This document shows, in pieces, positions 46,559-58,935 of a stretch of 64,000 nucleotides of DNA. The notes below the pieces were generated by a model. That model saw only the letters and a list, made by a program, of their open reading frames with translations. It was not told the origin of the DNA and ran no database searches. Position numbers and translations under genes: made by a program. Every line of letters starts with the position of its first letter. The stretch's first letter is position 1. The stretch lies in assembly GCF_003334305.1 (NCBI RefSeq), contig NZ_QOWS01000004.1; one strand, written 5' to 3'. Source of the stretch: Escherichia coli. GTDB lineage: Bacteria; Pseudomonadota; Gammaproteobacteria; Enterobacterales; Enterobacteriaceae.

Positions 46559-46924
46559 ATGATGTCCACCACGTTATTTAAAGATTTCACCTTCGAAGCC
46601 GCTCACCGCTTACCACACGTCCCGGAAGGGCATAAATGTGGTCGCCTGCACGGGCATTCCTTTATGGTGCGACTGGAAATTACCGGGGAAGTCGATCCGC
46701 ATACGGGCTGGATTATCGATTTCGCTGAACTAAAAGCGGCGTTTAAACCAACCTACGAGCGCCTCGATCACCATTATCTCAATGATATTCCAGGTCTGGA
46801 AAACCCAACCAGCGAGGTTTTAGCAAAATGGATTTGGGATCAGGTTAAACCCGTTGTGCCGCTGTTAAGTGCGGTGATGGTAAAAGAAACCTGTACCGCA
46901 GGTTGTATCTATCGCGGCGAATGA
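46559..46924 (+). CDS. queD: 6-carboxy-5,6,7,8-tetrahydropterin synthase (queuosine biosynthesis)
   Basis: 121 aa from [35 protein letters not shown], the PTPS family. Confidence 0.93.
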
Positions 46925-47001
46925 TAAGAGTGTGTCGGCGGTCAATTTCCCTTAAGTAACGCTATGTTAGGGTGTTGTGTTCTGGATATCTGGGGCATGA
47001 C

Positions 47002-48273
47002 ATGGAAGACGACTGCGACATTATTATTATTGGTGCCGGTATTGCAGGCACCGCTTGCGCGTTACGCTGCGCACGAGCGGGTTTATCCGTTTTGTTACTG
47101 GAACGCGCTGAAATCCCCGGCAGCAAAAATCTTTCCGGCGGGCGGTTATATACCCATGCACTCGCGGAACTCCTCCCGCAATTTCATCTGACCGCGCCTC
47201 TTGAACGACGCATCACTCACGAAAGCCTTTCCCTGTTAACGCCCGATGGCGTAACGACGTTTTCCAGCTTACAGCCCGGCGGTGAATCCTGGAGTGTATT
47301 ACGTGCACGGTTCGATCCGTGGCTGGTTGCCGAAGCCGAAAAAGAAGGTGTCGAATGCATCCCCGGAGCGACGGTGGATGCACTGTATGAAGAAAACGGC
47401 AGGGTGTGTGGTGTCATTTGTGGTGACGATATTCTCCGCGCCCGTTATGTGGTGCTGGCAGAAGGTGCCAACAGCGTCCTGGCTGAACGTCACGGATTAG
47501 TGACTCGTCCTGCTGGCGAAGCGATGGCGTTGGGGATCAAAGAAGTGCTGTCGCTGGAAACATCCGCTATTGAAGAACGTTTTCATCTGGAGAATAACGA
47601 AGGCGCAGCGTTGCTGTTCAGCGGCAGGATCTGTGATGACTTACCCGGCGGCGCATTTCTTTATACTAATCAACAAACGCTCTCGTTAGGGATTGTTTGC
47701 CCGCTCTCTTCCCTTACGCAAAGTCGTGTTCCGGCAAGCGAGCTGCTGACTCGCTTTAAAGCGCATCCGGCAGTGCGCCCGCTTATCAAAAACACGGAAT
47801 CACTGGAGTATGGTGCGCATCTGGTGCCAGAAGGTGGCTTGCACAGTATGCCGGTGCAATACGCCGGTAACGGCTGGCTGCTGGTGGGCGATGCGTTGCG
47901 CAGTTGCGTCAATACCGGAATTTCCGTGCGCGGCATGGATATGGCGCTGACTGGCGCGCAGGCGGCGGCACAAACGCTGATAAGCGCCTGCCAGCACCGC
48001 GAGCCGCAAAATCTGTTTGCGCTTTATCATCACAACGTAGAGCGCAGCCTGCTATGGGATGTTCTACAACGTTATCAGCATGTTCCGGCGCTTTTGCAAC
48101 GCCCTGGCTGGTATCGGGCGTGGCCTGCGTTAATGCAGGATATTTCCCGCGATTTATGGGATCAGGGTGATAAACCTGTTCCACCGCTGCGCCAGTTATT
48201 CTGGCGTCATTTACGTCGTCATGGCCTGTGGCATCTGGCGGGCGATGTTATCAGGAGTCTGCGATGTCTGTAG
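47002..48273 (+). CDS. ygcN: FixC-like FAD-dependent ETF:quinone-type oxidoreductase
   Basis: 423 aa from MEDDCDIIIIGAGIAGTACALRCARAG, an FAD dinucleotide fold. Followed by a FixX-like ferredoxin gene. Confidence 0.88.
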   Translation: MEDDCDIIIIGAGIAGTACALRCARAGLSVLLLERAEIPGSKNLSGGRLYTHALAELLPQFHLTAPLERRITHESLSLLTPDGVTTFSSLQPGGESWSVLRARFDPWLVAEAEKEGVECIPGATVDALYEENGRVCGVICGDDILRARYVVLAEGANSVLAERHGLVTRPAGEAMALGIKEVLSLETSAIEERFHLENNEGAALLFSGRICDDLPGGAFLYTNQQTLSLGIVCPLSSLTQSRVPASELLTRFKAHPAVRPLIKNTESLEYGAHLVPEGGLHSMPVQYAGNGWLLVGDALRSCVNTGISVRGMDMALTGAQAAAQTLISACQHREPQNLFALYHHNVERSLLWDVLQRYQHVPALLQRPGWYRAWPALMQDISRDLWDQGDKPVPPLRQLFWRHLRRHGLWHLAGDVIRSLRCL

Positions 48274-48524
48274 CCCATAATCTCTGGCGCGTTGCTGATG
48301 CGCCGCACATTGTTCCGGCTGACTCCGTTGAGCGTCAGATGGTACAACGGTTGATTAACGCCTGTCCGGCAGGTCTTTTTTCGCTCACACCGGAAGGTGA
48401 CTTACGCGTTGATTATCACGGCTGCCTGGAGTGTGGCACCTGCCGTTTGCTGTGCGACGAATCCACACTACAACAGTGGCGCTATCCGCCTTCCGGATTC
48501 GGCATCACCTACCGCTTTGGATAA
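48264..48524 (+). CDS. ygcO: FixX-like ferredoxin
   Basis: 86 aa from MSVAHNLWRV with CPAG...CLECGTCRLLC. AGGAG RBS. 10-nt overlap with ygcN. Confidence 0.85.
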   Translation: MSVAHNLWRVADAPHIVPADSVERQMVQRLINACPAGLFSLTPEGDLRVDYHGCLECGTCRLLCDESTLQQWRYPPSGFGITYRFG

Positions 48525-48540
48525 ATAATAAGGATAATTT

Positions 48541-49116
48541 ATGCCCCTCTTACACCTGCTCCGCCAGAATCCGGTGATTGCTGCCGTTAAAGATAATGCC
48601 AGCCTGCAACTGGCAATCGACTCTGAATGCCAGTTTATTTCCGTGTTGTACGGCAATATCTGCACCATCAGTAATATCGTTAAAAAGATTAAGAACGCCG
48701 GGAAATATGCTTTTATTCATGTTGATTTGCTGGAAGGCGCGTCAAATAAAGAAGTCGTGATTCAGTTTTTGAAACTGGTGACCGAGGCGGACGGCATTAT
48801 CAGTACCAAAGCCTCAATGTTGAAAGCGGCAAGAGCGGAAGGTTTTTTCTGTATTCATCGCCTGTTTATTGTTGATTCAATTTCGTTTCACAACATTGAT
48901 AAGCAAGTTGCGCAATCGAATCCGGATTGTATTGAGATCCTGCCAGGCTGTATGCCCAAAGTGCTGGGCTGGGTGACAGAGAAAATCCGCCAACCGCTGA
49001 TTGCCGGTGGGCTGGTGTGCGATGAAGAAGATGCGCGTAATGCGATTAACGCGGGTGTCGTGGCGCTTTCCACCACGAATACCGGGGTCTGGACGTTAGC
49101 GAAAAAATTACTTTGA
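48541..49116 (+). CDS. ygcP: GlpP-family (glycerol-3-phosphate responsive type) transcription antiterminator
   Basis: 191 aa MPLLHLLRQNPVIAAVKDNASLQLAI...HVDLLEG..., which resembles GlpP/TIM-barrel antiterminators. K-12 annotates it as a putative antiterminator. Confidence 0.8.
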   Translation: MPLLHLLRQNPVIAAVKDNASLQLAIDSECQFISVLYGNICTISNIVKKIKNAGKYAFIHVDLLEGASNKEVVIQFLKLVTEADGIISTKASMLKAARAEGFFCIHRLFIVDSISFHNIDKQVAQSNPDCIEILPGCMPKVLGWVTEKIRQPLIAGGLVCDEEDARNAINAGVVALSTTNTGVWTLAKKLL

Positions 49117-49149
49117 CGGGATAATCGTAACCAATTGAATTTGGTTTGA

Positions 49150-49260
49150 TTTGTAGGCCGCACGCCACATCCGACATTCAGCGCCTGATGCGACGCTTGA
49201 CGCGTCTTATCAGGCCTACAAGTCCCCAGGCCAGAACCGTAGGCAGGATCATCCGGCAAC
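49150..49260. repeat. BIME / cluster of three REP elements at the convergent ygcP / ygcQ junction
   Basis: GTAGGCCGCACGCCACATCCGACAT, GCCTGATGCGACGCTTGACGCGTCTTATCAGGCCTAC and CGTAGGCAGGATCATCCGGCA. Confidence 0.8.
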
Positions 49261-49263
49261 ACG

Positions 49264-50124
49264 TTATTGGCAATCTGCGTGAATGTTTGTCACCAGTGCC
49301 TCCAGCACCACTTTCCAGTCATCAACCACGCCAACATCTGCCTGTGAAAATACCGCAGCGCTGGCGTCATGATTAATCGCCACCACAAACTTGCTATTGC
49401 GTACGCCCGCCATTAACGCTGCTGCGCCAGAAGCGCCAACAACAATACACACCTCAGGTGCCAGCAGATGTCCGGAAATACCAATCACTTTTTCAGCATC
49501 AACGCCACCGTTCATCACTCGCGCCCGACTGTAGCCCACTTCGGCTCCCAGCTTTTCTGCCAGCATAGCGATTTCCTGGTTATCTGCCTCTCCGCCCTGC
49601 CCCACCACCAGCACCCGTCTGGCCTCAGCTAATGGGTCGCGAGTAACATTTTTCAGATCCTCTGTGCTAACCAGCCAGTCGGGAAGCGCACCCGGGACAA
49701 TGTTCAGTTGTTGCATTCCAGAGGGCAACGTGGCGTTTTTCGCTGCTCCCGCCTGACGCGCCAGGGAAAGGCATAGCGGGCGTTTTTCTGTTTGCAGCGT
49801 CGCCGTTAGCGCATTTCCCCAGTGGGATTTGCGCACGCTTACGGTTGGAATATCTAACGAAGTCACCTGGCAGATGCTTGCACCATGTAAACGCCAGGCC
49901 AGCCGGGTCGACAGTTCATCGCCAAACGTTCCCGGCGGAAAGAGAACAACGTCCGCAGGCGTTCGCTGCCACTGTTCCACCAACGCATCCAGCACCTGTT
50001 CCGCCACTACAGGCTGAGGTTCAATCTGCCAGTGCGCCAGGGTACAACCGCTGAAATCCTGCGCCGCCAGCCAGCTTGCTATTGCGGCATTCTCCTGATT
50101 TATTGTCACAATTGCGATATTCAT
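49264..50124 (-). CDS. ygcQ: Electron transfer flavoprotein alpha subunit paralogue (FixB-like)
   Basis: 286 aa from MNIAIVTINQ... with the C-terminal ETF-alpha FAD domain. Start overlaps the ygcR stop (ATGA). Confidence 0.88.
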   Translation of the reverse strand: MNIAIVTINQENAAIASWLAAQDFSGCTLAHWQIEPQPVVAEQVLDALVEQWQRTPADVVLFPPGTFGDELSTRLAWRLHGASICQVTSLDIPTVSVRKSHWGNALTATLQTEKRPLCLSLARQAGAAKNATLPSGMQQLNIVPGALPDWLVSTEDLKNVTRDPLAEARRVLVVGQGGEADNQEIAMLAEKLGAEVGYSRARVMNGGVDAEKVIGISGHLLAPEVCIVVGASGAAALMAGVRNSKFVVAINHDASAAVFSQADVGVVDDWKVVLEALVTNIHADCQ

Positions 50125-50900
50125 GGCTGCATCCTTTGGCGTAAATAGTCCTGCCATAGCTTTTGAGCTTTTTCTGCTACCGTTTGCCCATCAATCAGCG
50201 TCGCTCCGCGTCGTTGCTCTGCTCTTGCCAGTTGCAGACACTGCATCGCTGGCATTTCGGCAGCAACAGTTTTACGGATAATTTCTGCTTTCCCCGCAGC
50301 CATTCGCTGGCGCATTCCCGGTACTGGCAAGGCCACTTCACCGCACTGACGCACGGCAATCACCGCAGGCAAGCGAACCCGGCAACAACGCAAACCATGT
50401 TCAGTACGCTGTTCGAGGGTGATAAACAGCGCGTCGAGAGTGAAACGCTCCACCTGGGTGAAGCAGGGCCAGCCCAGCATTTCCGCCAGCAAAAATGGCG
50501 TTTGCCCATTCTGCCCTTCGCTGCTTTGGCAGCCGGTAATTATCAGATCCAGCGGATTCTGATGCTGCCATTCGGCAATATGGCGAGCGACAAATTCCGG
50601 CGCAAAGCGCAGATCTGCCGCCGTCTCCAGCAATACAGCTTCCTCAAACCCAAGAGCCATGAGATAGCGCAGCCAGTGCAATGCCCGTTCATCCCCCATG
50701 CTCAACGCGGTTAAAGACATCGGCGTACCGTTTTTTCTCTGCGCCAACAGCAGCGCGGCAGCGGCCTGTTCATCAGCACCGAGTAAACTTCGCAGTAGCG
50801 AAATATCCGGTCCGCTTTTACCCTGAGCCGCCGCCTGCCACTCTTTTTCCGCCAGCATTCCGGCATCCGGTTCGGCTTTAAACGCTAACAGAATGTTCAT
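50121..50900 (-). CDS. ygcR: Electron transfer flavoprotein beta subunit paralogue (FixA-like)
   Basis: 259 aa from MNILLAFKAEPD. GGAGGTG RBS upstream of the ATG at 50900. Confidence 0.88.
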   Translation of the reverse strand: MNILLAFKAEPDAGMLAEKEWQAAAQGKSGPDISLLRSLLGADEQAAAALLLAQRKNGTPMSLTALSMGDERALHWLRYLMALGFEEAVLLETAADLRFAPEFVARHIAEWQHQNPLDLIITGCQSSEGQNGQTPFLLAEMLGWPCFTQVERFTLDALFITLEQRTEHGLRCCRVRLPAVIAVRQCGEVALPVPGMRQRMAAGKAEIIRKTVAAEMPAMQCLQLARAEQRRGATLIDGQTVAEKAQKLWQDYLRQRMQP

Positions 50901-52215
50901 TCGCACCTCCTACATTTCCCGCCGCCACCAGCGGGAGGGCTTTAGTTTCTGGTGCCCATAGCCAGGTCACAACAAAACCAACCAACAACACTGTCGCCAG
51001 GAGCAATAAGGTGACTTGCATTCCCCACTGCGCCAGCACCCACGGCAGCAGGCCAGTACTTACCGCCGCGCCAAGTCGACTCATGGCGGTGGCAAAACCG
51101 ACGCCCAGCGAGCGAATGTCAGTAGGAAAACTTTCCGCAGGCAAAATGCCCACCAGATTACTGACTGCCGAAATGGTGGTGCTGAAGAGAACAAAAAGCA
51201 GCAGCGTTAATGAACTGCCGGAAGGCAAACAGGCCATGACTACCAGCGTTGCCGCCAGCAGCAAAAAACTTCCCAGCAAAAATTTGCGATGTGCCAGCAG
51301 GTGCGTCAGAACTAATCCCAGCAGCGCGCCCACAATTAACAACGCATTAAGCATCAGGCTGGCAGTCAGCGCATCTTCCAGACCAATAGTCTGGGCGATA
51401 GTTGGCAGCCAGGTATAAATCACAAACCATGGGATTACGAGGCAGACAAAGAAGACGCTGTTAAACGCCGTTCGCCGCCAGTAACGCGAAGAGAACAAGG
51501 TTTTGATGTGTTTATGGGTCGCCGTTACCACTTCATCGCCCAGTAAAACATGGGGACCAAAATAGCGATGCACGATAGCGTGAGCTTCTGCAAAACGCCC
51601 CTGGCGCAGTAGCCAGCGTGGTGATTCTGGCGTTCCCCAGCGTAATAACGTAATCAACAACGCGGGCAGAGCTGCCGATGCCAGTAGCCAGCGCCAGGCC
51701 TCCGGGTTTTCGGAAATAAAGTGATGTCCGGCAATACTTGCCAGCACATAGCCTACGGTCCACACCACGCTGAATGCGCCCAGCAAAATACCGCGATGGC
51801 GGCGCGGGGAAAATTCAGCCAGCAAGGTGTGACCTACTGAATAATCGCCTCCCAGACCAATGCCAATCAAAATGCGCAGTCCAATAAGATGCTCTGGCGT
51901 GGTGGCAAAAAATTGTAAAAACGAAGCAAGCGTAATCAGCAAAAAGCTGAAGGTGAAGATTTTTTGCCGACCAATATGGTCGGAGATCCACCCAAGAACC
52001 AGGCTGCCAAGGAACAAACCAAGGAGCGCCGAGCCGCCGATCATTCCCGCCATAAACGGCGTCAGTTGCATGGCGGGCGTAAGCTGAATAATGGCGTAAC
52101 CAATGACGCCGAGAACATAACCGTCGGTCAGGTGTGCGCCGAAAGTGAGCGCAGCAATGCGGCAGTGAAAACGGTTAAGCGGTAAATCATCCATTCGCAC
52201 CGGTGAAGTGTTCAT
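50878..52215 (-). CDS. ygcS: MFS sugar-porter-family transporter
   Basis: 445 aa from MNTSPVRMDDLPLNRFH, with 12 TM helices and a GRQK-type loop motif. Confidence 0.85.
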   Translation of the reverse strand: MNTSPVRMDDLPLNRFHCRIAALTFGAHLTDGYVLGVIGYAIIQLTPAMQLTPFMAGMIGGSALLGLFLGSLVLGWISDHIGRQKIFTFSFLLITLASFLQFFATTPEHLIGLRILIGIGLGGDYSVGHTLLAEFSPRRHRGILLGAFSVVWTVGYVLASIAGHHFISENPEAWRWLLASAALPALLITLLRWGTPESPRWLLRQGRFAEAHAIVHRYFGPHVLLGDEVVTATHKHIKTLFSSRYWRRTAFNSVFFVCLVIPWFVIYTWLPTIAQTIGLEDALTASLMLNALLIVGALLGLVLTHLLAHRKFLLGSFLLLAATLVVMACLPSGSSLTLLLFVLFSTTISAVSNLVGILPAESFPTDIRSLGVGFATAMSRLGAAVSTGLLPWVLAQWGMQVTLLLLATVLLVGFVVTWLWAPETKALPLVAAGNVGGANEHSVSV

Positions 52216-52308
52216 CTTTACCCCTTCATTGTCCGGTAATAAGAACGGCTTCTCGCCTGAGAAGCCGAAAAGGCAACGCCCCGTCATCGCGGAACGCTGC
52301 CTGACACA

Positions 52309-53763
52309 TTATTTTTCAATCGGATAGATAGTACCCGTATTCATAATGCCATTAGGATCGAACTGCTTTTTCAGCCCTTCCAGCAACGCCCACGCGCTGC
52401 CGTGTTCCAGTTTGCTCCAGTGAACGCGATGTTTACCGATACCGTGGTGGTGCACCATCGAACCGCCGAGGCGAATGGTTTCTTCACAGATGATCTTGTT
52501 GAGCGGATTGTGGTACTTGTCGATTTCCTCTTCCGGCTTACAGTCAACGACGTTGTAATCGTAGACGAAGTACATGTTGGTGCCGTTCTGATAGCTATGA
52601 GAGGAATGACCGCCCAGCATGGTGATGTCGTCGGCGTGCGGGAACTCAGTACGAATACGGTTAATAACGCTTTCGTAGATTTCGTGGATGCAGCTCCAGC
52701 AGCCGGACACTTCAGTGGTAAAGCCCATGTTGCCGGTTTTGAGGATCTGCACACGTTCGGCAGCCACTTTATCCGGTCCCCAGTTCAGGTTGTTAAACCA
52801 GGTTTCGATCAGCTTGCTGTCCACGCGCTGGCATTGCGGGTAGCGGGCAACGATTTCCGCAATCCCTTCGCCCGTCGCCTTCGCAATGCGAGGGTTACCT
52901 TCAGCCATAAAGATCAGCACGCATTTTCCGTCTGCAAAATGGGTGAAGTGTTGGGTGCCATCTTCAGCGTCATACAAACGAGCGATCGACGGACGATACC
53001 CTTCCACCATGACTTCACGCAGGATGTTGAAGCCGGTTTTCATGTCTTCCAGGATATAGCCGTAGAAGAGGTTGTTTTCCGGGGTGAATTTAAAGATTTT
53101 CACTGTTACTTCAGTGATATAGCAAAGTGCACCTTCGTTACCGATGATGATGTGGCGAATGTCCGGGCCAGCCGCGCGGCGTGGCACGTTTTTAATGCGT
53201 GTGACGGTGCCATCAGCCAATACTGCTTCCAGACCAACGACCATATCTTCGATTGCGCCGTAGAGTGTGGAGAACTGCCCGATACTGCGGGTTGCTACCA
53301 GGCCGCCCATCTGAGCCAGCGGCTTTGACTGCGGAGAATGCCCCGTGGTGTAACCTTTTTCACGCAACGCATTTTCCAGCACCTCCAGCGGAACGCCACA
53401 TTGCGCCGTCGCCTGCATATTCTCAATATCAATATTAATGATTTGATTCATGGCGGAGCCGTCGAGCACCACCGAGTTTTCCACAACGGTTTCCAGCCCA
53501 CCTTCAGTGGCGGAAGCGCCGGTACGCGGCACACCGTTAATTTTGTGCGCATTCATAAAATTCAGCACACGGGAGACTTGTTCTGTGGAACCGAGTTTTA
53601 CGACCGCTGCCGGAATCGGCAAAGTATAAATACCATGAATATCCGGAAATTTACGAAAACGGTCAATACTGTTCTTCTTTAATACTGTTTCATCGGTAAT
53701 TACGCGATCTGCACCAACAATTTCCTTTAGCTGGTCGACAATCGCTGCGCGAGATAAAGACAT
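52309..53763 (-). CDS. ygcU: FAD-linked oxidase (GlcD / alkyl-DHAP-synthase-like, PCMH fold)
   Basis: 484 aa with an N-terminal FAD-binding-4 domain (VPRTGASATEGG) and C-terminal HHHGIGK. Confidence 0.88.
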   Translation of the reverse strand: MSLSRAAIVDQLKEIVGADRVITDETVLKKNSIDRFRKFPDIHGIYTLPIPAAVVKLGSTEQVSRVLNFMNAHKINGVPRTGASATEGGLETVVENSVVLDGSAMNQIINIDIENMQATAQCGVPLEVLENALREKGYTTGHSPQSKPLAQMGGLVATRSIGQFSTLYGAIEDMVVGLEAVLADGTVTRIKNVPRRAAGPDIRHIIIGNEGALCYITEVTVKIFKFTPENNLFYGYILEDMKTGFNILREVMVEGYRPSIARLYDAEDGTQHFTHFADGKCVLIFMAEGNPRIAKATGEGIAEIVARYPQCQRVDSKLIETWFNNLNWGPDKVAAERVQILKTGNMGFTTEVSGCWSCIHEIYESVINRIRTEFPHADDITMLGGHSSHSYQNGTNMYFVYDYNVVDCKPEEEIDKYHNPLNKIICEETIRLGGSMVHHHGIGKHRVHWSKLEHGSAWALLEGLKKQFDPNGIMNTGTIYPIEK

Positions 53764-53832
53764 AGTAATTCCTTCCTGATAATAAAAATGGAATAATCAT
53801 TAATAAGAGAAAACAGAAACCACCGTTATGGA

Positions 53833-54618
53833 TTAGCGCACTAAATAACCACCATCGACCACTAATAAATGCCCATTGACATAATTTGAAGCCGGACTTG
53901 CGAGGAATACAGCTGCGCCCATTAAATCCTGAGTATCGCCCCAACGGTTTGCCGGAATATGATCAAGAACGCGCTGATTGGTTTCTGGATTACTGCGTGT
54001 CGCCAGCGTAATATCTGTTGCATAATAGCCAGGGGCGATACCATTTACCTGAATATTATATTGACCTAGCTCATCACAATAAGCTTTGGTGAACCCGGCA
54101 AGAGCATGTTTAGTGGCAGAATATGCAGGTGACCATTGTCCACCTAAGTAAGAGAACAATGAACAGATATTAATAATTTTGCCGCTTTTCTGCGGGATCA
54201 TAATTTTTGCAGCTTCATAGCTTAACTCGAATGCGGCGGTCAGGTTCACATCAATCATCGGATCCCAGTCGGCACGACCGAAGTCCAGCACCTTATTCAG
54301 CTTACAAATACCGGCATTGTTTACCAGAATATCAACTGTACCGAAACGCTCACAGCAAGCAGCGATAATCTTCTGCGGCGCGCCTTCTGCGGTGATATCC
54401 ACCTGCATGAAGTCCACCTCAACACCCTGTTTTTCAATCATTTCCTTTGTTTCGCCGTTATCTTTGACGAAACTAGGAATAAAGATATTTGCGCCAGCTT
54501 TGGCCAACGCCATGGCAAATGCCTGGCCTAAACCGCTATTCCCACCGGTAACAATTGCGGTTTTACCTTTCAGTGAGAAAAAATCCATTGAGAACGCATT
54601 GAGAGATTCGATTGACAT
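53833..54618 (-). CDS. ygcW: Short-chain dehydrogenase/reductase (KduD/gluconate 5-dehydrogenase-like)
   Basis: 261 aa from MSIESLNAFSMDFFSLKGKTAIVTGGNSGLGQA with catalytic YSATK. GGAG RBS upstream of the ATG at 54618. Confidence 0.88.
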   Translation of the reverse strand: MSIESLNAFSMDFFSLKGKTAIVTGGNSGLGQAFAMALAKAGANIFIPSFVKDNGETKEMIEKQGVEVDFMQVDITAEGAPQKIIAACCERFGTVDILVNNAGICKLNKVLDFGRADWDPMIDVNLTAAFELSYEAAKIMIPQKSGKIINICSLFSYLGGQWSPAYSATKHALAGFTKAYCDELGQYNIQVNGIAPGYYATDITLATRSNPETNQRVLDHIPANRWGDTQDLMGAAVFLASPASNYVNGHLLVVDGGYLVR

Positions 54619-54641
54619 AGTTAGCTCCAATTTCCGTAAGG

Positions 54642-54707
54642 CAAAAAAAAAGAAAGGTAACTTCCCCCGCGAGAGGGAAGTTACCTTTCTCATTATCTCT
54701 GGTAACT
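54642..54707 (-). promoter_or_regulatory. ygcW leader attenuator: intrinsic terminator plus overlapping antiterminator helix
   Basis: The minus-strand RNA reads AGUUACC-AGAGAUAAUGAGAAA-GGUAACU, the alternative helix. It overlaps the terminator AGAAAGGUAACUUCCC-UCUCGCGG-GGGAAGUUACCUUUCU-U9. The terminator ends 24 nt before the ygcW ATG. Confidence 0.7.
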
Positions 54708-54739
54708 GGAGATAATTTTTAGCATAACGGCATAACTGC

Positions 54740-54761
54740 TAATGTGATCGTAATCACAGTG
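54740..54761. promoter_or_regulatory. CRP-cAMP binding site centred between the divergent ygcW and yqcE promoters
   Basis: taaTGTGAtcgtaaTCACAgtg, a perfect TGTGA-N6-TCACA core. Confidence 0.7.
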
Positions 54762-54849
54762 TGATATTCGTATTGTCAAATAGTTTTAAAAAGCAGAAGC
54801 GTGATTACTCTCACACAACACCTCTGCTTTCCATGTTATTTCTTATTGC

Positions 54850-54912
54850 AATTACTAGAGACCTGAGAAAAGTAATCCACCTGAAAGGGCGGCTTACTTT
54901 TCTCTTTTTTTT
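54850..54912 (+). promoter_or_regulatory. yqcE leader attenuator: intrinsic terminator plus overlapping antiterminator helix
   Basis: The plus-strand RNA reads AUUACU-AGAGACCUGAGAA-AGUAAU, the alternative helix. It overlaps the terminator GAGAAAAGUAAUCCACC-UGAAAG-GGGCGGCUUACUUUUCUC-U8. The terminator ends 24 nt before the yqcE ATG. Confidence 0.65.
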
Positions 54913-54936
54913 GTCTATTACAAATGGGAATACGAT

Positions 54937-56214
54937 ATGCAACACAACTCATATCGCCGTTGGATAACCCTCGCGATAATTAGTTTTAGCGGCGGCGTTA
55001 GTTTCGACCTGGCTTATTTACGTTATATTTATCAAATTCCCATGGCGAAATTTATGGGATTCAGCAATACCGAGATAGGTTTAATAATGAGTACCTTTGG
55101 TATTGCGGCTATTATTCTTTATGCCCCCAGCGGCGTTATTGCCGATAAATTTTCACACCGCAAAATGATTACTTCCGCGATGATCATTACCGGATTACTG
55201 GGTCTGTTAATGGCAACGTATCCACCGCTGTGGGTAATGCTCTGTATTCAGGTCGCCTTTGCGATAACGACGATTTTAATGCTGTGGTCGGTGTCGATTA
55301 AAGCCGCCTCGTTGCTGGGCGATCATAGTGAGCAAGGGAAAATTATGGGCTGGATGGAAGGGCTGCGCGGCGTCGGTGTAATGTCGCTGGCGGTGTTTAC
55401 CATGTGGGTCTTTTCTCGCTTTGCACCGGATGACAGCGCCAGCCTGAAAACAGTCATTATCATCTACAGTGTGGTTTACATCTTGTTGGGGATTCTGTGC
55501 TGGTTTTTTGTTAGCGATAACAACAACCTGCGCAGTGCCAATAACGAAGAAAAACAGTCATTCCAGCTTAGCGACATCCTTGCCGTTTTGCGTATCAGCA
55601 CCACCTGGTATTGCAGCATGGTGATTTTTGGTGTCTTCACAATCTACGCCATTCTGAGTTACTCCACCAACTATCTGACCGAAATGTACGGCATGTCGCT
55701 GGTGGCAGCGAGCTACATGGGGATTGTGATCAACAAAATCTTCCGCGCGCTGTGCGGCCCACTTGGCGGCATTATCACCACCTACAGTAAAGTGAAATCC
55801 CCTACCCGCGTGATCCAAATCCTTTCCGTACTCGGCCTGCTGGCGTTAACTGCCCTGCTCGTCACGAACTCTAACCCGCAATCGGTCGCGATGGGGATTG
55901 GCCTGATTTTACTGCTGGGATTCACCTGTTACGCCTCACGCGGGCTGTACTGGGCCTGCCCTGGCGAAGCGAGAACACCGTCTTACATTATGGGCACCAC
56001 GGTAGGTATTTGTTCGGTGATTGGATTCCTGCCGGATGTCTTCGTTTACCCGATTATCGGCCACTGGCAAGACACCCTGCCCGCAGCAGAAGCCTACCGC
56101 AATATGTGGCTGATGGGAATGGCGGCGCTTGCCATGGTGATTGTCTTTACCTTTTTGCTGTTCCAAAAAATTCGTACTGCTGATAGCGCCCCCGCAATGG
56201 CTAGCAGCAAGTAA
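54937..56214 (+). CDS. yqcE: MFS transporter
   Basis: 425 aa, polytopic, divergent from ygcW. Confidence 0.85.
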   Translation: MQHNSYRRWITLAIISFSGGVSFDLAYLRYIYQIPMAKFMGFSNTEIGLIMSTFGIAAIILYAPSGVIADKFSHRKMITSAMIITGLLGLLMATYPPLWVMLCIQVAFAITTILMLWSVSIKAASLLGDHSEQGKIMGWMEGLRGVGVMSLAVFTMWVFSRFAPDDSASLKTVIIIYSVVYILLGILCWFFVSDNNNLRSANNEEKQSFQLSDILAVLRISTTWYCSMVIFGVFTIYAILSYSTNYLTEMYGMSLVAASYMGIVINKIFRALCGPLGGIITTYSKVKSPTRVIQILSVLGLLALTALLVTNSNPQSVAMGIGLILLLGFTCYASRGLYWACPGEARTPSYIMGTTVGICSVIGFLPDVFVYPIIGHWQDTLPAAEAYRNMWLMGMAALAMVIVFTFLLFQKIRTADSAPAMASSK

Positions 56215-56240
56215 GCCAGGAAAATTACAGGAGAAAAATC

Positions 56241-57719
56241 ATGTCGAAAAAATACATCATAGGGATTGATGGCGGAAGTCAGAGCACAAAAGTGGTGATG
56301 TACGATCTGGAAGGTAACGTGGTTTGCGAAGGCAAAGGCTTATTACAGCCGATGCACACGCCAGATGCCGATACTGCAGAACATCCTGACGACGATTTAT
56401 GGGCATCATTATGTTTTGCAGGTCACGATTTGATGAGCCAGTTTGCCGGGAATAAAGAAGATATTGTTGGCATCGGCCTGGGCTCCATCCGTTGCTGCCG
56501 TGCGTTATTGAAAGCCGACGGCACGCCAGCTGCGCCGTTGATTAGCTGGCAGGATGCACGCGTTACACGCCCTTACGAACATACGAATCCTGACGTGGCG
56601 TATGTCACCTCTTTTTCGGGTTATCTGACGCATCGCTTAACCGGCGAGTTTAAAGACAATATCGCCAACTATTTTGGTCAGTGGCCGGTGGATTATAAGA
56701 GCTGGGCATGGAGCGAAGATGCTGCGGTAATGGATAAGTTTAATATCCCCCGTCATATGCTGTTTGATGTGCAAATGCCTGGCACCGTCCTCGGACATAT
56801 CACACCACAAGCCGCACTGGCGACACATTTCCCGGCAGGACTGCCGGTTGTTTGTACCACCAGTGATAAACCGGTAGAAGCTCTGGGGGCCGGATTACTG
56901 GATGATGAAACTGCGGTAATTTCTCTTGGCACTTACATCGCATTGATGATGAACGGCAAAGCACTGCCGAAAGATCCGGTGGCGTACTGGCCGATTATGT
57001 CTTCTATTCCGCAAACATTGCTGTATGAAGGTTACGGTATTCGCAAAGGTATGTGGACGGTGAGCTGGCTGCGTGACATGTTAGGCGAGTCGTTAATTCA
57101 GGATGCCAGGGCGCAGGATCTTTCACCGGAAGATTTACTCAACAAGAAAGCCTCTAGTGTGCCACCTGGCTGTCATGGGCTGATGACGGTGCTGGACTGG
57201 CTGACCAATCCGTGGGAACCGTACAAACGCGGGATTATGATCGGCTTTGATTCCAGCATGGATTACGCATGGATATATCGTTCGATATTGGAAAGTGTGG
57301 CGCTAACGCTGAAGAACAATTACGACAATATGTGTAATGAAATGAATCACTTTGCGAAGCATGTGATCATTACTGGCGGCGGTTCGAACAGCGATCTGTT
57401 TATGCAAATTTTTGCCGACGTGTTCAACCTTCCGGCACGCCGTAACGCCATTAACGGTTGTGCAAGTCTGGGAGCAGCGATTAATACAGCGGTAGGTCTG
57501 GGGCTATACCCGGATTACGCAACGGCTGTTGATAAGATGGTTCGCGTGAAAGATATCTTTATACCGATTGAGAGCAATGCCAAACGCTACGACGCGATGA
57601 ATAAAGGCATTTTCAAAGACCTAACCAAACATACTGATGTGATCCTGAAAAAATCGTATGAAGTGATGCATGGGGAATTGGGGAATGTGGATTCGATCCA
57701 GAGCTGGTCGAATGCGTAA
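56241..57719 (+). CDS. ygcE: FGGY-family carbohydrate kinase
   Basis: 492 aa MSKKYIIGIDGGSQSTKVVMYD..., the FGGY N-terminal motif, with a C-terminal GGGSNS. Confidence 0.88.
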   Translation: MSKKYIIGIDGGSQSTKVVMYDLEGNVVCEGKGLLQPMHTPDADTAEHPDDDLWASLCFAGHDLMSQFAGNKEDIVGIGLGSIRCCRALLKADGTPAAPLISWQDARVTRPYEHTNPDVAYVTSFSGYLTHRLTGEFKDNIANYFGQWPVDYKSWAWSEDAAVMDKFNIPRHMLFDVQMPGTVLGHITPQAALATHFPAGLPVVCTTSDKPVEALGAGLLDDETAVISLGTYIALMMNGKALPKDPVAYWPIMSSIPQTLLYEGYGIRKGMWTVSWLRDMLGESLIQDARAQDLSPEDLLNKKASSVPPGCHGLMTVLDWLTNPWEPYKRGIMIGFDSSMDYAWIYRSILESVALTLKNNYDNMCNEMNHFAKHVIITGGGSNSDLFMQIFADVFNLPARRNAINGCASLGAAINTAVGLGLYPDYATAVDKMVRVKDIFIPIESNAKRYDAMNKGIFKDLTKHTDVILKKSYEVMHGELGNVDSIQSWSNA

Positions 57720-57727
57720 GTGAGGAA

Positions 57728-57751
57728 GGCCGGGCGGGAAACTGCCCGGCC
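57728..57751 (+). terminator. Hairpin after ygcE (possible terminator, no U-tract)
   Basis: GGCCGGGC-gggaaact-GCCCGGCC, 8 nt after the stop codon. Confidence 0.4.
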
Positions 57752-57764
57752 TGAACATACCTGA

Positions 57765-57903
57765 ATGGTTATCCCCGCTGACGCGGGGAACATAAGTTCG
57801 ACAACTTAAAAAATGATAACAAGTCCGGTTTATCCCCGCTGATGCAGGGAACATAATAAAAACTTTAACTAGTTCGGTTTATCCCTGTTTTTACAAGGAA
57901 TAT
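57765..57903 (-). CRISPR. Decayed CRISPR remnant: three degenerate type I-E repeats
   Basis: ATGGTTATCCCCGCTGACGCGGGGAACAT (57765-57793, 5 mismatches). CGGTTTATCCCCGCTGATGCAGGGAACAT (57826-57854, 4 mismatches). CGGTTTATCCCTGTTTTTACAAGGAATAT (57875-57903, heavily decayed). The first spacer is 32 nt and the second only 20 nt. Confidence 0.8.
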
Positions 57904-58357
57904 TAACTACACTCGATGTCTTTAGAATAAAAGACAATACGAATCGCACTTTATCAATTTTCACTTAAAGTATGAACTGGATATCTTTATTCATAAGAAC
58001 TATTCATCAACAGCGTATAGAGGCGGTTATGTAAAACCACTCATTAGCCTCAAAACAAAGACAAACTTCCAGATTTATTACTTAACCAATGAATAACAAG
58101 CTTAAAAAATATACTGTTATTCTAAAGAAAAAATTAACAGGCATTAATTCAATATTAAAAAAATAATAGATTAAAATTTCTTAACGATTTAAGAATCATA
58201 CAAATAACACTTTGATTAAATTTAATTTTTTGTATCGATAATTGTGAACCTCTCTGGCATGGAGAACTATTTTGAACATGAGGTGTTACGTGGATATGTT
58301 GCTTATTACAAGTACTGCTAATATAAAAACTTGAGAAAGAGATAACGGGTTATATGG

Positions 58358-58935
58358 TGGTTTATCCCCGCTGGCGCGGGGAGCTCAACATCGGAAACGG
58401 CTTCGCGGCGGCGGCGTCCGGTTTATCCCCGCTGGCGCGGGGAGCTCTACGTGAAGAATATTTGCAACACCCGCAAGAACGGTTTATCCCCGCTGGCGCG
58501 GGGAGCTCGGCATAGCCAGGCTGATCCGGCGACGGCCTTACGGTTTATCCCCGCTGGCGCGGGGAACACTGTTCGGCGGGGCGGTAGTACCACTGTTTTT
58601 TCGGTTTATCCCCGCTGGCGCGGGGAACACATCAACATGCAGCGCGAACGGCTGCCCCTCGCCGGTTTATCCCCGCTGGCGCGGGGAACACTCTTATTCA
58701 GTCCCCTTTTCCATCTGCTGTGGCGGTTTATCCCCGCTGGCGCGGGGAACACGTAAATTGCGACGTCCTGCGCCAGTAATTCAACGGTTTATCCCCGCTG
58801 GCGCGGGGAACACGATGCGGCAGCGGCGGCGGGAAGTTATCGCGGCGGTTTATCCCCGCTGGCGCGGGGAACACCTTTCAATATAGTCAGAAAAGTCTTT
58901 TGGCAACGGTTTATCCCCGCTGGCGCGGGGAACAC
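58358..58935 (-). CRISPR. Second type I-E CRISPR array (no adjacent cas genes): 10 repeats, 9 spacers of 32 nt
   Basis: Repeats start at 58358 and recur every 61 nt up to 58907. The seven leader-proximal copies match the array-1 consensus (…GGGGAACAC). The three distal copies end …GGGGAGCTC, and the outermost of these begins with T instead of C. Confidence 0.97.

Follow-up and report, generated by a model that had tools for sequence, protein, structure and literature searches.

The ygc island of Escherichia coli: a conserved, probable nutrient-breakdown pathway with a common leader RNA on its two divergent operons

According to the RefSeq annotation, positions 47002-57719 of the window, i.e., the whole 64,000-nucleotide stretch of E. 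coli DNA that was analyzed, comprise ygcNOP, ygcQRSUW, and yqcE-ygcE (Table 1). This interval matches the chromosome of E. coli A7 with 100% identity, and the island occurs in approximately 5100 of the 5426 complete genomes of the species. A previous sequence-only reading had described a ten-gene cluster at this position, which is real as judged by both RefSeq genes and Pfam domains. Every domain assignment in the ten genes was borne out by Pfam, including the KduD-like SDR YgcW, the FGGY kinase YgcE, the MFS pair YgcS and YqcE, and the GlpP-type YgcP. A canonical REP sequence was likewise found at the convergent ygcP/ygcQ junction, as had been proposed, with a match to the REP-derived Rfam family naRNA4 (34 bits, E 0.005) that stayed under the gathering score. 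A full-text literature search found no substrate or phenotype assignment for the ygc island, and none of the ten proteins reached an NCBIfam equivalog cut-off, which agrees with the earlier description of the cluster as functionally unassigned.

Table 1. Genes and sequence features of the ygc island, with positions in the window.
Feature	Position	Strand	Assignment	Basis
ygcN	47002-48273	+	FixC-like FAD oxidoreductase, putative ETF:quinone oxidoreductase	Pfam, NCBIfam
ygcO	48264-48524	+	FixX-like ferredoxin-like (4Fe-4S) protein	NCBIfam, Pfam
ygcP	48541-49116	+	GlpP-family RNA-binding antiterminator	Pfam G3P_antiterm, full length, E 1.4e-62
REP element	~49143-49216	.	Convergent ygcP/ygcQ junction	Canonical REP sequence
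ygcQ	49264-50124	-	Divergent ETF alpha subunit	Pfam ETF_alpha + ETF
ygcR	50121-50900	-	Divergent ETF beta subunit	Pfam ETF
ygcS	50878-52287	-	MFS transporter	Pfam Sugar_tr + MFS_1
ygcU	52309-53763	-	ADPS-type VAO-fold flavoenzyme, putative core catalyst	Pfam FAD_binding_4 + FAD-oxidase_C
ygcW	53833-54618	-	KduD/gluconate-5-dehydrogenase-like classical SDR	Pfam adh_short
ygcWUSRQ leader	54639-54709	-	5′ box, antiterminator, intrinsic terminator	Covariance model R1, 74.2 bits
CRP site TGTGATCGTAATCACA	54743-54758	.	~41 bp upstream of first base of ygcW leader	Read from sequence
CRP-like site CGTGATTACTCTCACA	54800-54815	.	~41 bp upstream of first base of yqcE leader	Read from sequence
yqcE-ygcE leader	54848-54915	+	Same 5′ box/antiterminator/terminator design	Covariance model R1, 72.8 bits
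yqcE	54937-56214	+	MFS transporter	Pfam MFS_1
ygcE	56241-57719	+	FGGY-family kinase	Pfam FGGY_N + FGGY_C

Of 65 species representatives of the Enterobacterales, 52 keep the gene order of the island, this order being common to Escherichia, Klebsiella, Citrobacter, Enterobacter, Serratia fonticola, Rahnella, Budvicia, and others. Purifying selection acts on each of the ten genes (dN/dS 0.01-0.4), with values of ~0.01 for ygcU, ~0.01-0.03 for ygcP (96-97% protein identity in Klebsiella and Citrobacter), ~0.07 for ygcN, 0.11-0.25 for ygcQ, and 0.2-0.4 for ygcO, the least constrained of the ten. This synteny and selection, the common leader RNA on both operons, and the CRP sites support the view that the ten genes are one functional unit. 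Inheritance as a unit is not strict, however, as the four electron-transfer genes can be absent as a block: all four lie near the core in the 52 species, none in 12, and an intermediate set in one. Beyond the Enterobacterales, an SDR–FGGY kinase–YgcU–ETFβα core is also encoded on contigs of Firmicutes, Negativicutes, Desulfobacterota-like, and marine Gammaproteobacteria origin, 35 dereplicated loci containing the SDR and ETFβ in 26 cases each, the FGGY kinase in 24, and ETFα in 22. The ygc island is real and conserved, and it is probably a nutrient-breakdown pathway.

Both divergent operons begin with one conserved, previously undescribed leader of ~70 nt, whose pattern has three matches in the window where none is expected by chance. 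In the ygcW leader (MFE -37.5 kcal/mol, z -6.6) the terminator consists of a 19-bp stem followed by U9; the yqcE leader folds with an MFE of -22.3 kcal/mol (z -4.2). Covariation is present in the terminator as well as in the antiterminator. Among 115 leaders, the antiterminator pair u2-N12 is G-C in 66, A-U in 48, and mismatched in one, and in 81 of them the antiterminator-pair base fails to match its terminator partner. For 20 diverse leaders, 96.4% of the antiterminator cells are paired and the covariation score was reached by none of 500 shuffles. These observations are in line with the antitermination control that had been suggested for the island. Since the antiterminator alone contributes only -6.7 kcal/mol against highly stable terminators, a protein would be needed to favor it. 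The leader is found at both operons in almost all Enterobacterales loci and in every distant-phylum locus with ygcP, and this co-occurrence makes it very probable that the leader is the target of YgcP. The ygcNOP operon itself does not have a leader of the ygcW/yqcE type. The CRP control assumed before is in line with one site per divergent promoter, with genomic SELEX data in which CRP bound the ygcW<>yqcE spacer (PMC3105977), with a CRP site predicted in the same spacer by PhyloScan (PMC1794230), and with the listing of yqcE-ygcE among Crp-activated genes in a transcriptome study (PMC8085971).

The four electron-transfer genes had been read as a full FixABCX-like module, which applies to YgcN and YgcO only. 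YgcN contains the Pfam domains DAO and, just above the cut-off of 27.7 bits, the ubiquinone-binding ETFQO_UQ-bd (29.8 bits), and matches the NCBIfam models PRK10015 (382 bits) and FixC (365 bits) under their cut-offs; YgcO matches FixX with 84 bits (cut-off 166) and weakly Fer4_9 of Pfam. YgcQR, in contrast, is a divergent ETF and not nearer to FixAB than it is to housekeeping ETFs, the nearest solved structures being 1efv, 5ow0, and LctC for YgcQ (E ~1e-22) and 1efp_B for YgcR (E 3e-11). The start of ygcR falls within the end of ygcS, and the ygcR end and the ygcQ start share 4 nt. The ETF/FixCX-like module evolves at approximately ten times the rate of the core, and the FixCX-like pair is nearly restricted to Enterobacterales. 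As the module is missing near the core in the 12 Enterobacterales species and also in the Alkalihalobacillus and Arenicella loci, an ETF is not obligatory for YgcU. In 21 of the 28 non-Enterobacterales loci in which this could be tested, the gene next after ygcU encodes ETFβ, which supports, at the genetic level, the proposed coupling of the flavoenzyme to an ETF.

YgcU had been called GlcD/alkyl-DHAP-synthase-like, of which the second part held: the enzyme resembles the alkyl-DHAP-synthase (ADPS) type rather than sugar-acid oxidases. Its profile retrieves ADPS from the PDB with an E-value of 1.8e-57 and aligns full-length with Dictyostelium ADPS, where R419, Y578, and H615-617 correspond to the invariant YgcU residues R262, Y398, and H438-440. 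In place of the GEHG found at this position in the glycolate oxidase, lactate dehydrogenase, and LctD-type enzymes compared, YgcU has the HHHG of ADPS. A Foldseek search with a YgcU structure model, whose confidence is low in the FAD and active-site loops, returned AGPS for all of the best 31 matches (TM 0.8). The N-terminal part of ADPS (~130-170 residues) is absent. Presence of the ADPS residues and lack of GEHG point to a C1-substituted, DHAP-like phospho-ketone as substrate. ADPS catalyzes a redox-neutral exchange, so that homology leaves the ETF requirement of YgcU unexplained.

As judged from their sequences, neither the kinase nor the SDR pins down a glycerol moiety. The nearest solved structures of YgcE are LsrK and, next, glycerol kinases; R83, W103, and D245 of GlpK are kept, whereas E84 is replaced by Cys, and the GlpK model is matched with 97.9 bits (cut-off 590). 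YgcW is a generic KduD-like SDR (NCBIfam KduD 350.6 bits, cut-off 369) with 2-deoxy-D-gluconate 3-dehydrogenase as top PDB match (E 2e-58). YqcE is a distant relative of the anion:cation symporter/galactonate-transporter family (NCBIfam 2A0114, 64.9 bits), and a copy with 58% identity precedes the FGGY kinase in Photobacterium. YgcS has relatives among sugar-porter, aromatic-acid, organic-cation, and NiaP families (NCBIfam 2A0115, SP, and 2A0119, "cation transport protein", 138.6 bits).

Outside the Enterobacterales, BCCT, OpuAC, MttB, or corrinoid genes adjoin the core in ~14 of 22 long distant loci, and in Sporomusa and a Firmicutes MAG the BCCT genes carry a leader copy of their own. In Alkalihalobacillus, genes for an aspartase-like lyase, a betaine-aldehyde-DH-like ALDH, and a Zn-ADH lie directly upstream of BCCT-SDR-FGGY-YgcU. 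These contexts suggest a quaternary-ammonium-bearing substrate and argue against the plain sugar, polyol, or hydroxy-acid envisaged before. The substrate class that we favor would be a 1-substituted glycerol, bearing a quaternary ammonium group in other phyla; the underlying C1-substituted glycerol/DHAP chemistry is put forward tentatively, and it is somewhat less likely than not that the E. coli substrate, too, bears a quaternary ammonium group. E. coli has MFS transporters and no BCCT, so that the compound it uses is not necessarily the one handled by the distant clusters.

Taken together, the best explanation is a CRP-dependent catabolic system, gated by antitermination, that breaks down a small hydroxylated compound; this seems reasonably probable, and the general architecture is likely. 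By default, each leader would fold into the strong intrinsic terminator. Effector-loaded YgcP, supplied by the separate ygcNOP operon, would bind the 5′ box and stabilize the 7-bp antiterminator helix; in analogy to GlpP with its glycerol-3-phosphate, YgcP would probably respond to the phosphate ester produced by YgcE. After uptake by YqcE and YgcS, YgcE would phosphorylate one terminal hydroxyl of a glycerol-like diol and YgcW would oxidize the adjacent secondary alcohol with NAD(P)+, yielding a DHAP-like keto-phosphate with a C1 substituent as substrate for YgcU. Because YgcU is tied to its own ETF, the flavin must end reduced, which suggests that the C1 substituent is oxidized or oxidatively released instead of being exchanged as by ADPS. 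Electrons would then pass to YgcQR and, in most Enterobacterales, via YgcN/YgcO to quinone. We infer this order of steps and direction of electron flow from the assignments above.

It is unlikely that YgcU is instead a 2-hydroxy-acid or polyol-phosphate dehydrogenase of the GlcD/D-lactate-dehydrogenase kind, which would follow import and phosphorylation of a sugar, polyol, or hydroxy-acid and feed a FixABCX-type chain. GlcD, LctD, and D-LDH do match YgcU, less strongly than ADPS does, the kinships of YgcW and YqcE would fit, and LctBCD shows that an enzyme of the GlcD type can work with an ETF. The HHHG in place of the Glu-His of GEHG and the invariant ADPS Arg and Tyr, however, speak against it, as do the betaine/methylamine instead of sugar genes in other phyla; moreover, a true GEHG-type oxidase, where present, is encoded separately from ygcU, by an additional gene that has an ETF of its own.

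The Bacillus glp regulon combines a GlpP-family regulator, an FGGY kinase, and an FAD enzyme. The ygc layout parallels this regulon, an ADPS-type pocket binds a DHAP moiety, and YgcE keeps three GlpK residues, so that an alternative glycerol-phosphate system mirroring glpP-glpK-glpD could be considered, in which YgcE forms sn-glycerol-3-phosphate, the enantiomeric sn-glycerol-1-phosphate, or a closely similar compound, this product is the signal for YgcP, and the ETF-linked YgcU produces DHAP. This is quite improbable, as it has no role for the invariably linked SDR, leaves the BCCT and MttB linkage unexplained, and relies on a kinase without Glu84 that falls far under the GlpK cut-off. Furthermore, GlpK, GlpD, and GlpABC are already present in E. 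coli, whose glpK mutants, to our knowledge, fail to grow with glycerol.

Very unlikely is a reductive direction of the kind that has been proposed for FixABCX in the carnitine pathway, with YgcNO and YgcQR feeding YgcU, which would reductively remove a C1 substituent such as an amine from the keto-phosphate under anaerobic conditions. In E. coli and Citrobacter, anaerobic carnitine reduction has been linked to FixAB/FixC (PMC12482172, and references therein), the linkage to quaternary-amine genes would fit, and an α-substituted ketone should be chemically reducible. Against this, the ADPS/VAO family offers no precedent, the core is kept without ETF in aerobes, CRP control suits carbon catabolism, and anaerobes often pair the core with a second, LctBCD-like oxidizing module. 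Ether-lipid biosynthesis, with YgcU as true alkyl-DHAP synthase and YgcW as alkyl-DHAP reductase, is hardly credible: the ADPS fold and catalytic residues, the match to the eukaryotic step order of ADPS followed by an SDR reductase, and two PlsC-type acyltransferases directly upstream in one Syntrophomonadaceae locus are outweighed by the presence of transporters, CRP control, a kinase, and a dedicated ETF, by the absence of acyltransferase, fatty-alcohol source, and ADPS N-terminal part, and by the fact that E. coli, as far as we know, makes no ether lipids.

Some further observations concern single genes and their surroundings. In ETF-less Enterobacterales, a formaldehyde-activating enzyme, a YghZ/YdjG-like aldo-keto reductase, and an aldehyde dehydrogenase are encoded beside ygcS, which was taken as support for the favored substrate class. 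In published work, deletion of ygcU left T3SS activity unrestored, and D-serine induced ygcU 1.69-fold, which is a weak hint. The likeness of YgcS to organic-cation and NiaP transporters was counted toward the quaternary-ammonium class. As a further weak hint, over-expressed YgcS increased the output of NMN from nicotinamide (PMC8601175).

The ten genes of the ygc island are annotated by RefSeq just as they were listed in the earlier sequence-only reading, with ygcN, ygcO, and ygcP on the plus strand, ygcQ, ygcR, ygcS, ygcU, and ygcW on the minus strand, and yqcE and ygcE again on the plus strand. Each of the domain assignments made there was confirmed by Pfam, and the REP element placed at the convergent ygcP/ygcQ junction is real. 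The description of the island as functionally unassigned also holds, as none of its ten proteins, all of which were scored, attained an NCBIfam equivalog cut-off (the nearest miss being YgcW on the KduD model NF005390, with 350.6 bits versus a cut-off of 369) and literature searches using the gene names yielded no substrate or phenotype. Likewise, no functional study of the island, or of any bacterial catabolic enzyme resembling alkyl-DHAP synthase (ADPS, also AGPS), was found in the papers searched. In a study on D-serine, ygcU was induced just 1.69-fold and its deletion did not restore T3SS activity. A proteomics paper on quaternary amines in Citrobacter (PMC12482172) was discarded as evidence, since it deals with cai/fix and not with ygc. 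The sequence of the island is 100% identical to the chromosome of E. coli A7, and the island is found in about 5100 of 5426 complete E. coli genomes (about 94%); an apparent match in all 5426 genomes is probably caused by short repeats such as REP, which are multi-copy in each genome. It is flanked by queD on one side and by a CRISPR array and queE on the other. The array lies directly to the right of ygcE, ahead of queE, and cas3, a hok/gef gene, and cysHIJ are located left of queD, so that the type I-E CRISPR-Cas region and its second array flank the island.

The conservation of the island was analyzed in a species scan, in which relatives of YgcU were collected from one genome per species (80 loci) and the ten E. 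coli proteins were mapped onto these loci by tblastn. Counts for Enterobacterales refer to the 65 species representatives whose locus is flanked by 9 kb or more on either side. The whole island is present in the same order in 52 of them, one contains the electron-transfer flavoprotein (ETF) genes without the FixC/FixX-like pair, and the remaining 12 (Erwinia, Pantoea, Izhakiella, Rouxiella, Ewingella, and the Serratia proteamaculans/quinivorans group) contain the core only, namely ygcS, ygcP, ygcE, yqcE, ygcW, and ygcU. These six core genes always occur together among the Enterobacterales loci, whereas the distribution implies that the four electron-transfer genes were gained or lost as a block. 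Inheritance as a single unit, as had been assumed, is therefore supported by the common gene order in the 52 species and does not extend to the electron-transfer block in the other 12. All ten genes are under purifying selection of uneven strength, with dN/dS values of about 0.01-0.03 for YgcU, YgcW, and YgcP, about 0.03-0.06 for YgcE and YqcE, about 0.04-0.12 for YgcS and YgcN, 0.11-0.25 for YgcQ and YgcR, and 0.2-0.4 for YgcO. The proteins encoded by ygcQ, ygcR, ygcO, and ygcN evolve approximately ten times faster than those encoded by ygcU, ygcW, and ygcP. Between E. coli and Klebsiella, YgcU is 94% and YgcQ 59% identical, and between Escherichia lineages YgcR and YgcO show 87 and 84% identity where YgcU shows 100%. 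At the ygcE position, the FGGY kinase occurs in two versions with about 85 and about 47% identity to E. coli YgcE (loci L045-L069 and others compared with L009-L044), the latter being nearer to kinases of distant anaerobes (about 70% to the kinase of locus L086). This sequence comparison suggests that the kinase gene was replaced in place within Enterobacterales islands.

Of the FixABCX-like module proposed previously, the presence of an ETF was corroborated and YgcN and YgcO score as relatives of FixC and FixX, while YgcQR does not qualify as a FixAB equivalog. The two adjacent genes encode ETF domains (YgcQ, PF00766 with E 1.1e-17 and PF01012; YgcR, PF01012 with E 1.7e-16), yet the FixA/FixB cut-offs were clearly missed (YgcQ 62-72 bits versus 528-549, YgcR 32.5 versus 219), and the best solved relatives are housekeeping ETFs. 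YgcN contains the ubiquinone-binding domain of ETF-QO (PF21162, 29.8 bits versus a cut-off of 27.7) and remains below the cut-offs of PRK10015 (382 versus 466) and FixC (365 versus 610), as does YgcO for FixX (84 versus 166). Judged by these scores, YgcN and YgcO are members of the FixC and FixX families and not equivalogs. The antiterminator family domain G3P_antiterm (PF04309) aligns over residues 1-173 of the 173 residues of YgcP (E 1.4e-62). YgcE is composed of the FGGY domains PF00370 and PF02782, and its invariant D209 corresponds to the catalytic Asp of GlpK (D245). The glycerol-binding pair Arg83-Glu84 of GlpK is incomplete in YgcE, with the Arg kept and Glu84 replaced by Cys, and the score on the GlpK model is far below the cut-off (97.9 versus 590). 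YgcE is classified as an FGGY kinase that is not GlpK, XylB, or LsrK. YgcW also remains below the cut-off of a second KduD model (TIGR01832, 276.3 versus 338.9). YgcS resembles organic-cation and NiaP transporters, and its overexpression was reported to increase NMN production from nicotinamide in an engineering study (PMC8601175).

For YgcU, the sequence-only reading had left it open whether the enzyme is of the GlcD or the alkyl-DHAP synthase type, and of these two only the latter was retained. YgcU contains a VAO-type FAD-binding domain (PF01565, E 4.7e-36) and the C-terminal cap domain of FAD oxidases (PF02913, E 2.3e-19). A profile of 12 diverse family members gave ADPS as best match (E 1.8e-57) and aligned across the full length of the Dictyostelium enzyme. 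In this alignment Arg419, Tyr578, and the His615-617 loop of ADPS correspond to the invariant R262, Y398, and H438-440 of YgcU, the catalytic positions being fixed independently by PDB entries of mutants (4bc7, Arg419His; 4bca, Tyr578Phe). The Glu-His motif GEHG of 2-hydroxy-acid dehydrogenases is absent from YgcU, in which VHHHGIG takes the place of GEHGVG in glycolate oxidase (9qgz) and of GEHGIG in LctD, and the score on the GlcD model is 142.9 versus a cut-off of 567.9. A Foldseek search with the AlphaFold model of YgcU (pLDDT 74.8, pTM 0.77) returned AGPS structures for all of the top 31 PDB matches (TM about 0.8), followed by D-lactate dehydrogenases (0.74). With 484 amino acids, YgcU lacks the N-terminal extension of ADPS (about 130-170 residues), and the alignment begins at residue 135 of the 584-residue Dictyostelium enzyme and at residue 176 of the 658-residue mammalian enzyme. 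On these grounds, YgcU is placed in the ADPS branch by predicted fold and catalytic residues. ADPS (EC 2.5.1.26) replaces the acyl group in acyl-DHAP by a fatty alcohol without net redox change, a reaction in which the conserved residues deprotonate C1 of the DHAP derivative, form an adduct with flavin N5, and expel the C1 substituent. Because these residues act in this way, the substrate of YgcU would be a C1-substituted, DHAP-like keto-phosphate. YgcU very probably does not catalyze the ADPS reaction itself.

YgcU is unusually well conserved outside Enterobacterales, with about 70% identity to its counterparts in Sporomusa, Alkalihalobacillus, Desulfobacula, and Photobacterium. A set of 35 dereplicated loci was assembled from genome loci, a metagenome scan, and five look-ups of encoding contigs; of these, 26 contain a YgcW-like SDR, 26 ETFβ, 24 a YgcE-like FGGY kinase, 22 ETFα, 12 a second FAD oxidase, and 6 YgcP. 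The start of the ETFβ gene lies at most 200 nt from the end of ygcU in 21 of the 28 testable loci, and of the available evidence this adjacency speaks most strongly for a joint function of YgcU and YgcQR. Since ADPS is redox-neutral and the linkage to an ETF is conserved, it is implied that the flavin of YgcU ends up reduced; the gene neighborhoods thus argue for a redox-active outcome unlike the ADPS exchange. The FixC/FixX-like pair is essentially restricted to Enterobacterales, with one metagenomic exception (L138). The second oxidase, present in Sporomusa and other distant loci, carries the GEHG motif and has LctD as best solved relative. In Photobacterium and the Firmicutes HGW-7 MAG it is accompanied by its own ETFβ and a ferredoxin-fused ETFα. 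The second oxidase and its ETF are an LctBCD-like module, which E. coli does not possess.

The spacer between the divergent ygcW and yqcE operons comprises 318 bp and contains two mirror-image control regions (see table). Both operons are headed by a leader of about 70 nt. The two leaders share the stem base GAGAAARGUAA/UUACYUUUCUC and an upstream box, ARUUACY, which is able to base-pair with the terminator's 5′ arm and so form an antiterminator helix. The leader pattern matched three times in the window versus zero matches expected, and was found at both operons in nearly all Enterobacterales loci. A relaxed version was found in every distant locus encoding YgcP (Firmicutes, Syntrophomonadaceae, Sporomusa, Photobacterium, and sediment contigs). 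Among 115 distinct leaders, the antiterminator pair u2-N12 is A-U in 48, G-C in 66, and mismatched in one, and N12 is unpaired with its terminator partner in 81. In the ygcW leader, u2 and N12 are window positions 54706 and 54676. When 20 leaders from three phyla were aligned, pairing was seen in 96.4% of the antiterminator cells, compared to at most 57% in slid controls, and the covariation score was attained by no shuffle; compensatory changes were also observed in the terminator helix. The terminators are predicted to be stable (ygcW, -37.5 kcal/mol, z -6.6; yqcE, -22.3 kcal/mol, z -4.2), whereas the antiterminator by itself reaches just -6.7 kcal/mol, as expected for a protein-dependent switch. 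An Rfam scan of 46800-58400 (E≤1) yielded no family for the leaders, and RefSeq contains no annotation at these positions. Matches to "ygcW" in a paper on riboswitch entropy were rejected as the leader, as the windows concerned lie beside queE, 3.5-4.2 kb from ygcW. The leader occurs in only about two copies per E. coli genome. No copy is found upstream of ygcN, and the regulator YgcP would therefore be made independently of its targets. YgcP would bind these leaders, its effector probably being the product of the kinase YgcE.

Each leader has one of the two predicted CRP sites, centered about 41 bp ahead of its first base, a spacing that we read as that of class II CRP promoters. The sites agree with CRP binding and activation reported for this spacer (PMC3105977, PMC1794230, PMC8085971). 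At the sequence level, the assumed co-regulation of the genes is thus borne out by the common leader on both operons and by the CRP sites.

Coordinates of features in the window and in related loci. L-numbers denote loci with YgcU relatives from the genome and metagenome scans.
Feature	Sequence	Coordinates	Strand	Remarks
ygc island	window	47002-57719		ten genes
ygcQ, ygcR, ygcO, ygcN	window	49264-50900, 47002-48524		fast-evolving; compared with 52309-54618
ygcW leader	window	54639-54709	-	5′ box, antiterminator, terminator
yqcE leader	window	54848-54915	+	5′ box, antiterminator, terminator
ygcW terminator hairpin	window	54691→54650	-	perfect 19-bp stem, then U9; about 30 nt ahead of ygcW start codon
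yqcE terminator hairpin	window	54865-54903	+	similar stem, then U8; ahead of yqcE
CRP site TGTGATCGTAATCACA	window	54743-54758		read from sequence
CRP site CGTGATTACTCTCACA	window	54800-54815		read from sequence
Hairpin at ygcU/ygcS boundary	window	52246-52267	-	9 bp, GC-rich, no clean U-run
CRISPR repeat array	window	about 58358-58935		
Distant leaders	L073	9527-9595, 9821-9897		
Distant leaders	L084	8969-9033, 16415-16479		
Distant leaders	L082	9049-9122, 16681-16747		
Distant leader	L077	7545-7609		
ygcS-adjacent gene set of ETF-less loci, with LysR regulator	L046	1-2889		Erwinia typographi
ygcS-adjacent gene set of ETF-less loci, with LysR regulator	L064	1-2776		Serratia-type locus
Aspartate-ammonia-lyase-like gene, betaine-aldehyde-DH-like ALDH, Zn-ADH	L083	1932-5984		Alkalihalobacillus oceani; same strand, directly upstream of BCCT-SDR-FGGY-YgcU
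Second oxidase/module	L082	13187-16591		
Second oxidase/module	L073	13233-16789		
Second oxidase/module	L084	13241-14782		
Second oxidase/module	L086	13283-14845		

Regarding the substrate, quaternary-amine genes adjoin the core in about 14 of the 22 long distant loci. In Firmicutes HGW-7, Arenicella, Photobacterium, Alkalihalobacillus, and Sporomusa these are BCCT transporter genes; Desulfobacula and several sediment contigs have genes for MttB-family methyltransferases together with corrinoid and pterin-binding partners, and OpuAC-type binding proteins are also encoded beside the core. When 131 further neighbors were surveyed with Pfam, ABC permeases, DAO-type oxidases, β-hydroxyacid dehydrogenases, and dimethylamine methyltransferases were found, along with additional MttB proteins. 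Since the BCCT genes of Sporomusa and of a Firmicutes MAG are preceded by their own copies of the ygc leader, they belong to the same regulon. In ETF-less Enterobacterales, ygcS is followed by three genes, whose products are a formaldehyde-activating enzyme that scores above its NCBIfam cut-off, an aldo-keto reductase similar to YghZ/YdjG, and an ALDH resembling succinate-semialdehyde dehydrogenase. Enzymes of the YghZ/YdjG family reduce L-glyceraldehyde-3-phosphate and methylglyoxal, and the set hints at reactive aldehydes or formaldehyde as products. The genes upstream of the Alkalihalobacillus oceani core would fit a further breakdown of a released trimethylammonio-alcohol. These contexts are mutually consistent and point to a putative substrate in which a methylated-ammonium moiety is attached to a glycerol-like unit. 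The candidates are dihydroxypropyl-ammonium compounds and glyceryl ethers, among the latter deacylated betaine-lipid head groups, each of them, taken individually, being quite improbable. As E. coli uses MFS transporters, its substrate may have shifted to a related compound.

In the proposed pathway, YgcE would phosphorylate the terminal hydroxyl of a glycerol-like diol, YgcW would oxidize the secondary alcohol to a C1-substituted DHAP, and YgcU would remove the substituent via a flavin-N5 adduct, with net electrons passing to the ETF. An oxidative release of the C1 substituent, in analogy to nitroalkane oxidase, would be chemically plausible. We consider it possible, though on balance unlikely, that the ygc core constitutes such an undescribed catabolic route, in which a C1 substituent (ether or ammonium) is cleaved from a glycerol backbone in a flavin-dependent reaction. 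Candidate substrates of the route would be a glyceryl ether, for example a deacylated betaine-lipid head group, or another quaternary-ammonium derivative of glycerol.

The main alternative is that YgcU performs a simple, GlpD-like dehydrogenation of a phosphate ester, and it draws on the likeness of the island to the glp regulon of Bacillus subtilis. In both, catabolic operons are preceded by leader terminators, the regulator is an RNA-binding antiterminator of the GlpP family that probably responds to the product of an FGGY kinase, and a phosphate ester is the substrate of an FAD enzyme. The ygc island differs from glp in that its FAD enzyme is ADPS-type and not GlpD, and in having an SDR, a dedicated ETF/FixCX-like chain, and other transporters. 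An erythritol- or threitol-type pathway was rejected, since the island contains no isomerases and its FAD enzyme is not GlpD-type. The erythritol pathway of Brucella also combines an FGGY kinase (EryA) with a subsequent flavin-dependent oxidation of the polyol phosphate, but EryB is GlpD-like and not VAO/ADPS-like, and neither an ETF nor an antiterminator is involved. Glycerophosphocholine was dismissed because a phosphodiesterase would be enough, and DHPS or other sulfonates because no sulfonate genes are linked.

The cleavage route can also be compared to eukaryotic ether-lipid enzymes. YgcU shares the fold and the catalytic Arg/Tyr/His-His-His set of ADPS, and kinase, SDR, and ADPS-type enzyme correspond to the alkylglycerol kinase, alkyl-DHAP reductase, and ADPS steps in reverse. 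Unlike its eukaryotic counterparts, YgcU has no ADPS N-terminal region and is ETF-linked, the kinase is of the FGGY type and not of the ACAD10 type as the animal alkylglycerol kinase (bioRxiv 10.1101/2025.09.10.675409), and the three enzymes belong to a soluble, catabolic system that includes transporters and is controlled by CRP. LctBCD of Acetobacterium woodii is similar in that the gene of a VAO-fold FAD dehydrogenase lies beside its own EtfB and EtfA; however, the active site of YgcU is of the ADPS and not the lactate dehydrogenase type, and E. coli YgcQ lacks a ferredoxin domain. With FixABCX and YdiQRST of E. coli the island shares the combination of an ETF with a FixCX-type membrane-side partner, YgcN and YgcO being paralogues of FixC and FixX, whereas YgcQR scores far below the FixA/FixB models and is no closer to FixAB than to housekeeping ETFs, and its partner enzyme is not an acyl-CoA dehydrogenase. 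Overall, the island resembles the glpP-glpK-glpD logic of Bacillus with an LctBCD-like, ETF-coupled VAO-fold enzyme and an E. coli-style FixCX outlet.

The genes have long been known and annotated, and the ygc island itself is not new; no description of a catabolic ETF-linked ADPS-type enzyme, of the cross-phylum link to quaternary amines, or of the conserved leader was found in the papers searched. With ten contiguous genes under strong purifying selection, the island ranks among the larger coherent blocks of the E. coli "y-ome". The previous notion of a sugar or polyol island gives way to claims that are specific and can be tested: an ADPS-type enzyme that would have to turn over redox-actively together with a dedicated ETF, an RNA switch that could be used as reporter in inducer screens, and a substrate class of glycerol-like compounds with quaternary-ammonium or ether substituents. 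If the cleavage route is real, it would represent the first catabolic role in the ADPS family and an ether or C-X cleavage unrelated to alkylglycerol monooxygenase, which is named as the only known ether-lipid-cleaving enzyme in two reviews (PMC9192799, PMC7911779). The leaders would then form a new class for GlpP-family antiterminators whose conservation reaches from E. coli to Firmicutes and Negativicutes. Should the substrate be a quaternary amine derivative from the diet or the host, the pathway would have a bearing on choline, carnitine, and trimethylamine metabolism in the gut; the related clusters of marine and sediment anaerobes would have a bearing on the turnover of betaine and betaine lipids.

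Enterobacterales-type ygc loci were also found in assemblies labelled as a Planctomycetota MAG (L006), Chryseobacterium sp. (L037), and Pseudomonas lundensis (L064), with YgcU identities of 100, 89, and 81%, respectively. Contamination or mislabelled records, and not transfer, probably account for these contigs. In addition, the hairpin at the ygcU/ygcS boundary falls inside the annotated first 24 codons of ygcS, whose true start is uncertain; start positions scatter in cross-genus alignments. This hairpin could be an intercistronic stability element.
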